From NCBI RefSeq assembly GCF_054482525.1, contig NZ_CM137006.1: a stretch of 64,000 nucleotides of DNA; one strand, given 5' to 3'. The position numbers were made by a program, and so were the translations under genes. Below the pieces are notes generated by a model. The model was not told the origin of the DNA and searched no databases. It saw nothing but the letters and a program-made list of their open reading frames with translations. This document shows, piece after piece, positions 57,579-57,695 of this stretch (position 1 is its first letter; each line of letters opens with the position of its first letter).

Positions 57579-57665
57579 ATGAAACTGCGCAAAATCCTGA
57601 AAAGTATGTTCAATAACTATTGCAAGACGTTCAAAGACGTACCGCCAGGCAATATGTTCCGATAA
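57579..57665 (+). CDS. azuC: Small protein AzuC (28 aa)
   Basis: ATG 57579; product MKLRKILKSMFNNYCKTFKDVPPGNMFR; intrinsic terminator immediately downstream. Not in the ORF track (below its size cutoff). Confidence 0.8.
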   Translation: MKLRKILKSMFNNYCKTFKDVPPGNMFR

Positions 57666-57666
57666 C

Positions 57667-57695
57667 AAAAAACCTGCTCCGGCAGGTTTTTTTGT
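57667..57695 (+). terminator. Rho-independent terminator of azuC
   Basis: AAAAAACCTGCTCCGGCAGGTTTTTTTGTG. Confidence 0.8.

Follow-up and report, generated by a model that had tools for sequence, protein, structure and literature searches.

The azuCR locus of Escherichia coli in a 64-kb window: a 28-codon gene on a very probable dual-function RNA, and its conservation across Enterobacteriaceae

The window, a 64,000-nucleotide stretch of contig NZ_CM137006.1 (RefSeq assembly GCF_054482525.1), carries on its plus strand the short gene azuC, enclosed in a longer transcript, AzuCR, with promoter elements on one side and an intrinsic terminator on the other. Read directly from the letters, the azuC coding sequence occupies 57579-57665, with the ATG at 57579-57581, 28 sense codons and the TAA at 57663-57665, and its translation, MKLRKILKSMFNNYCKTFKDVPPGNMFR, is the AzuC peptide. 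The original prediction, made by a model without database searches, had described an ATG, 28 codons and a TAA at this place, and this was borne out to the base. It had also named the gene azuC, and the name holds: the peptide matches the NCBIfam equivalog model NF033642 with 75.9 bits against a cutoff of 30 (E = 1.3e-21, residues 2-27 covered), the alignment to K-12 azuC (b4663) that had been proposed as a check gave 87 of 87 nt identical by blastn, and RefSeq annotates azuC at the same place in matching E. coli genomes. The gene does lie below the 60-codon cutoff of the ORF track, as had been said, and in the six-frame listing its frame appears only as a 48-aa extension with a TTG start. The features of the locus, including those that lie upstream of the gene, are as follows.

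57481-57496: upstream CRP-type site, TGTGA-N6-TCACA, with perfect consensus half-sites; one difference from K-12, at 57490, in the spacer
57503-57508, plus strand: -35 hexamer TTGATT, from the promoter scan; 80-100% conserved in 70 species
57511-57526: second CRP-type site, TGTGA-N6-TCATA, with one mismatch, overlapping the -10 hexamer; one difference from K-12, at 57518, in the spacer
57525-57530, plus strand: -10 hexamer TATTAT, from the promoter scan; 90-100% conserved
57537-57695, plus strand: AzuCR (azuR/IsrB/IS092) transcript, 159 nt according to the K-12 annotation
57548-57554, plus strand: FnrS pairing site CACCUGU, 25-31 nt upstream of the ORF
57568-57571, plus strand: Shine-Dalgarno sequence GGAG, 7 nt 5' of the ATG; at least 90% conserved
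57579-57665, plus strand: azuC coding sequence, 28 codons and TAA
57625-57650, plus strand: predicted AzuR base-pairing region, AzuCR nt 89-114, codons 16-24, from the local duplex search
57667-57693, plus strand: intrinsic terminator, made of A6, CCTGC-TCCG-GCAGG and T7

In E. coli K-12 MG1655, the coding sequence azuC lies inside the non-coding RNA azuR (b4434, 159 nt), between yecR and yecJ, and the gene order yecR-azuC-yecJ-ftnB is the same in the window. Using blastn, K-12 azuR was placed at 57537-57695 with 159 of 159 nt identical. The window and K-12 thus share transcript, peptide, neighbours, promoter architecture and terminator, and within 241 aligned nucleotides they differ only at 57490, where the window has C and K-12 has T, and at 57518, where the window has A and K-12 has G. 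Both substitutions are upstream of the transcription start, each in the N6 spacer of one of the two CRP-type sites, where they could slightly change the affinity for CRP. Within the species, 5418 of 5426 complete E. coli genomes contain the AzuCR transcript with an identity of at least 95% and carry an annotated azuC there; two of the 5,422 transcript matches sit on plasmid-typed records. On this comparison the locus is the already known azuCR of E. coli, an ordinary copy that is biologically nothing new. A search of the AzuCR RNA against Rfam 15 returned no family at gathering score, with sub-threshold matches to STnc370 (33.4 bits, gathering score 54) and rsmX (23.4 bits, gathering score 56) that come mainly from the terminator hairpin, and this failure says nothing on the identity of AzuCR. 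The STnc370 match lies on the minus strand at 57661-57725 and is carried by the symmetric hairpin with its A-run and T-run, which looks bidirectional; it is probably not a separate RNA.

The -35 and -10 hexamers are separated by a 16-nt spacer, and the -10 hexamer ends 7 nt before the published transcription start, K-12 position 1988001 (Raina 2022, PMC8915982), which maps to 57537. Fig. 1A of the same paper also reports predicted CRP sites for this promoter. In the 64-kb window, TGTGA-N6-TCACA with at most one mismatch occurs six times against 2.1 matches expected by chance, and two of the six are at the azuCR promoter. The position of the second site, overlapping the -10 hexamer, would be consistent with repression. 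At the other end of the unit, the terminator consists of an A6 run (57667-57672) that starts one base past the azuC stop codon, the stem arm CCTGC (57673-57677), the loop TCCG, the arm GCAGG (57682-57686) and a T7 run (57687-57693). Its predicted fold has a free energy of -18 kcal/mol with z = -5.3, and none of 200 shuffled sequences was as stable, so that the strong intrinsic terminator claimed after the gene is indeed present. A simple consensus terminator scan did not report this hairpin, because the A6 and T7 runs pair, extend the stem and leave no T-tail; this is a limit of the scan and no counter-evidence. From the sequence, then, the locus has the hexamers of its own promoter, an intrinsic terminator and identity to azuR, as expected for a discrete unit of about 160 nt. 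The end coordinate that had been given, 57695, is the exact annotated 3' end of K-12 azuR. The first reading was right about gene and terminator and incomplete in the rest, since it omitted the second function of the RNA and its 5' part: the 42-nt 5' UTR of AzuCR and the CRP-controlled promoter begin upstream of its coordinates.

Two published measures differ from those used here. The length of AzuCR is reported as 164 nt (PMC8915982) and annotated as 159 nt in RefSeq; the longer form would run to about 57700 in the window. The azuC coding sequence is described in the paper as '40 to 126 nt', and it falls at 43-129 including the stop codon when counted from K-12 position 1988001.

The size of the azuC ORF is by itself not beyond chance, as 37 ORFs of at least 20 aa overlap the 2.3 kb around it. 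What raises it above chance is the combination of a Shine-Dalgarno sequence, a terminator, 100% identity to K-12 and a coding signature that extends across genera. This signature was obtained by scanning one genome per species with a degenerate DNA pattern for C-K-x-F-K-D-x-P-P-G, which gave 70 matches from 70 species representatives, all of them azuC orthologues. The counts refer to phylogenetically related sequences and not to independent events. All 70 species have an intact ORF, of 27 aa in 52 cases, 25 aa in 11, 28 aa in six and 29 aa in one. The orthologues belong to at least 18 named genera of Enterobacteriaceae, with matches in Escherichia, Citrobacter, the Klebsiella oxytoca group, Kluyvera, Kosakonia, Leclercia, Phytobacter, Mangrovibacter, Cedecea, Buttiauxella, Franconibacter, Siccibacter, Superficieibacter, Pseudocitrobacter, Pseudescherichia, Silvania, Dryocola and 'Enterobacter sp.'. 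Salmonella, K. pneumoniae and the E. cloacae complex gave no match to the pattern, which requires C-K-x-F-K-D-x-P-P-G exactly, so that this is no evidence that the gene is absent there.

In codons 2-14, which lie outside the search pattern, the entropies at codon positions 1, 2 and 3 are 0.25, 0.22 and 0.75. Codon 17, which the pattern leaves fully free, encodes Thr in 71 of 71 sequences with all four Thr codons in use, and the NTN codon of the pattern encodes Val in every sequence, again with four codons. The excess of variation at the third position and the synonymous use of Thr17 and Val codons indicate selection on the peptide; they argue that AzuC is under protein-level purifying selection across genera and that azuC is a real gene. 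Toward its N-terminus the peptide is amphipathic, with a hydrophobic moment of 0.60 for residues 2-19, compared with 0.26 +/- 0.13 in shuffled sequences, of which 0.6% reach 0.60.

Conservation is not confined to the coding sequence. In a map of the 70 species, the CRP half-sites, the -35 and -10 hexamers, CACCUG, GGAG and the terminator stem are 80-100% conserved, and the spacers and the loop vary. The CCTGC...GCAGG-T7 terminator follows azuC in all loci except L055, whose locus ends inside the hairpin, and its stem and T-run are invariant. RNAalifold, applied to the 70 transcripts, found no well-supported structure besides the terminator and no compensatory changes, the latter because the stems are invariant. 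In the 5' UTR, CACCUGU at 57548-57554 complements the FnrS 5' end, GCAGGUG, with a terminal G.U pair, at the distance of 25-31 nt upstream of the ORF where FnrS pairing was reported (PMC8915982). In 62 of the 70 species the site reads CACCUGC, the perfect complement of GCAGGUG; the Escherichia group, including the window, has U at 57554, the last base of the FnrS target. In the local duplex search of FnrS against AzuCR, other duplexes outrank the validated 7-nt site, and the case for it therefore rests on direct complementarity and conservation.

AzuCR, formerly known as IS092 or IsrB, has been described in K-12 as a dual-function RNA (Raina 2022, PMC8915982); its first description, as an sRNA candidate, is credited to Chen 2002 as cited there. 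The 28-aa AzuC could be detected as a protein with an SPA tag, and ribosome profiling supports its synthesis. It is a stable, amphipathic peptide of the inner membrane that co-purifies with GlpD and increases glycerol-3-phosphate dehydrogenase activity, probably by helping the enzyme to associate with the membrane (PMC8915982). As the riboregulator AzuR, this RNA pairs directly with cadA and galE and thereby represses them: compensatory mutations restore the repression of cadA-gfp and galE-gfp, and cadA-gfp expression is higher in an azuCR deletion strain (PMC8915982). The pairing region lies inside the coding sequence, and translation and pairing interfere with each other. Transcription of azuCR is repressed by CRP when glucose is absent, and FnrS blocks AzuC translation under anaerobiosis (PMC8915982). 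According to a 2025 review, AzuR binds cadA near the ribosome-binding site and galE within the coding sequence, and the repression is ProQ-dependent (PMC12612679).

The pairing of AzuCR with these two targets was modelled using a 28-nt sliding local search against the K-12 target sequences, with accessibility ignored. The best local duplex with cadA joins AzuCR nt 89-114 (57625-57650) to cadA -16..+10 at -24.2 kcal/mol, and the same nucleotides give the best local duplex with galE, at +17..+44 and -19.8 kcal/mol. The predicted region agrees with the published location as far as the sources describe it, that is, inside the azuC coding sequence on the AzuCR side, near the ribosome-binding site of cadA and in the coding sequence of galE. 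Across the 70 species, the wobble-position entropy is 0.71 in the pairing codons 16-24 and 0.75 in codons 2-14. The wobble positions of the pairing codons are thus as variable as those elsewhere, so no extra riboregulator constraint is visible across genera, and the sRNA function of AzuR may have arisen later than the peptide or span fewer taxa.

Other dual-function RNAs of carbon metabolism offer a comparison. In E. coli, SgrS/SgrT is like AzuCR in that a single short RNA carries the code for a small protein and also pairs with mRNAs to repress them, with both activities directed at carbon metabolism; however, coding and pairing regions are separate in SgrS and overlap and compete in AzuCR, and SgrT inhibits PtsG whereas AzuC activates GlpD (PMC8915982). 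Spot 42/SpfP of E. coli and VcdRP of Vibrio cholerae are likewise CRP-repressed dual-function RNAs of carbon metabolism. Their sequences, their protein partners (CRP and citrate synthase) and their mRNA targets are unrelated to those of AzuCR, and no homology is claimed.

Taken together, the data point to the locus being E. coli azuCR, a short independent transcription unit that specifies a dual-function RNA, a reading to which we assign a probability of about 0.96; nothing contradicting this identification was found in the analysis. A sigma-70 promoter, with one CRP site beside it and another overlapping it, would produce an RNA of about 160 nt that ends at the intrinsic terminator. Ribosomes would translate this RNA into the 28-aa amphipathic AzuC, which in turn would stimulate GlpD. 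Acting as AzuR, the same RNA would pair through its region inside the coding sequence with cadA, near the ribosome-binding site, and with the coding region of galE, leading to repression of both, and translation and pairing would be expected to compete. In the absence of glucose, cAMP-CRP would repress azuCR transcription; under anaerobiosis, FnrS would pair 25-31 nt upstream of the ORF and AzuC synthesis would be blocked. We infer that these K-12 functions operate in the window strain as well; the whole transcript is identical to that of K-12, all named elements are present, the peptide is under selection and amphipathic, and the complementarity to cadA, galE and FnrS is in place.

Three other explanations of the locus were weighed against this one. 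The RNA might be a plain mRNA for a small protein, with AzuR pairing an effect of overexpression or a recent, Escherichia-specific addition of little physiological weight. The published repression data come mostly from plasmid overexpression (PMC8915982), and wobble positions are not better conserved in the predicted pairing region than in the rest of the ORF; yet compensatory mutations restored repression of both fusions, loss of azuCR raised cadA-gfp expression (PMC8915982), and a single stretch of 26 nt gives the best duplex with both cadA and galE, which leaves a mere mRNA very improbable. The converse, a purely non-coding sRNA (IsrB/IS092) with a 28-codon ORF by chance, would fit the original description as an sRNA candidate, as Chen 2002 is cited in PMC8915982, and ORFs of this length are common by chance. 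It is ruled out, with a probability that is close to negligible, by the coding signature, in which third positions vary threefold in excess, Thr17 is invariant while four codons are used and all 70 species keep the ORF intact with its Shine-Dalgarno sequence conserved, and by the published detection of the tagged protein and the ribosome profiling in K-12 (PMC8915982).

The remaining explanation concerns the downstream gene, yecJ, an uncharacterised gene (DUF2766), for which azuC could serve as leader peptide and attenuator. In its favour, 60 of the 70 species loci (L009-L078) have yecJ downstream of azuC in the same orientation, and only four (L020, L040, L057 and L071) lack it over at least 1.7 kb downstream. 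Between the azuC terminator and the yecJ ATG lie 50-92 nt in most species, but just 23-24 nt in three loci of the Pseudescherichia vulneris group (L014, L021 and L059). These three have no room for a promoter after the hairpin, so that yecJ must there be transcribed either through the hairpin or from upstream. Against a leader function, the peptide is conserved in full and not merely in some regulatory codons, no alternative anti-terminator fold was found, the terminator hairpin being the sole well-supported consensus structure, and AzuC is a stable, membrane-located and functional protein in K-12 (PMC8915982). Past the terminator, moreover, nearly all species share a TACTAT (57742-57747 in the window) that lies some 30 nt before the yecJ start codon; it is probably the -10 element of yecJ, consistent with a promoter of its own; no convincing -35 element was found in this upstream region, and the simple scan called no plus-strand promoter there. 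On the full-length conservation of the peptide, the missing alternative fold and the TACTAT, the leader explanation was rejected as very improbable, more so than the mRNA without a riboregulator.

The presence of yecJ in 60 of 70 species, the gap of 23-24 nt in three of them and the absence of extra wobble constraint in the pairing region nevertheless leave room for two more speculative ideas, which we regard as rather unlikely. One is that azuC and yecJ form a conserved functional pair, in which read-through of the terminator, or a promoter that overlaps it, would add to yecJ expression and AzuCR would serve as a 5' leader too. The other is that the peptide is the ancestral function across Enterobacteriaceae and the control of cadA and galE by AzuR a later addition restricted to Escherichia.

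It had been remarked that other genes of fewer than 60 codons in the intergenic regions would go unseen. The remark is valid, although its scope is small: when the K-12 annotation was mapped to the window, the only other annotated coding sequence of fewer than 60 aa was yecU (58 aa, 49707-49883, minus strand), which overlaps the start of yecF and remains intact in the window, with D18A and I19V as its two amino-acid changes. Two further genes, yodC (60 aa) and dsrB (62 aa), lie at the 60-codon cutoff. Five small RNAs of K-12 were located by blastn, all with 96-100% identity to K-12:

11604-11693: RseX
20029-20119: DsrA
43437-43627: FliX
48482-48618: SdsN
53724-53790: 3'ETS-leuZ

Elsewhere in the window, only the ends of fliC (41742-43430) align to K-12 fliC, with about 91% identity, and the centre does not, indicating a different flagellin (H-antigen) allele in this strain. 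The yedN region (32992-34124) shows 83% identity to the K-12 yedN pseudogene, compared with 96-100% in the neighbouring genes.

For genome scanning, azuC serves as a positive control, as a 28-codon gene hidden by a 60-codon track was recognised without tools and with exact ends. What the comparison adds for the family is the extent of the module, which from the CRP sites to the terminator is conserved as a whole in at least 18 named genera of Enterobacteriaceae.
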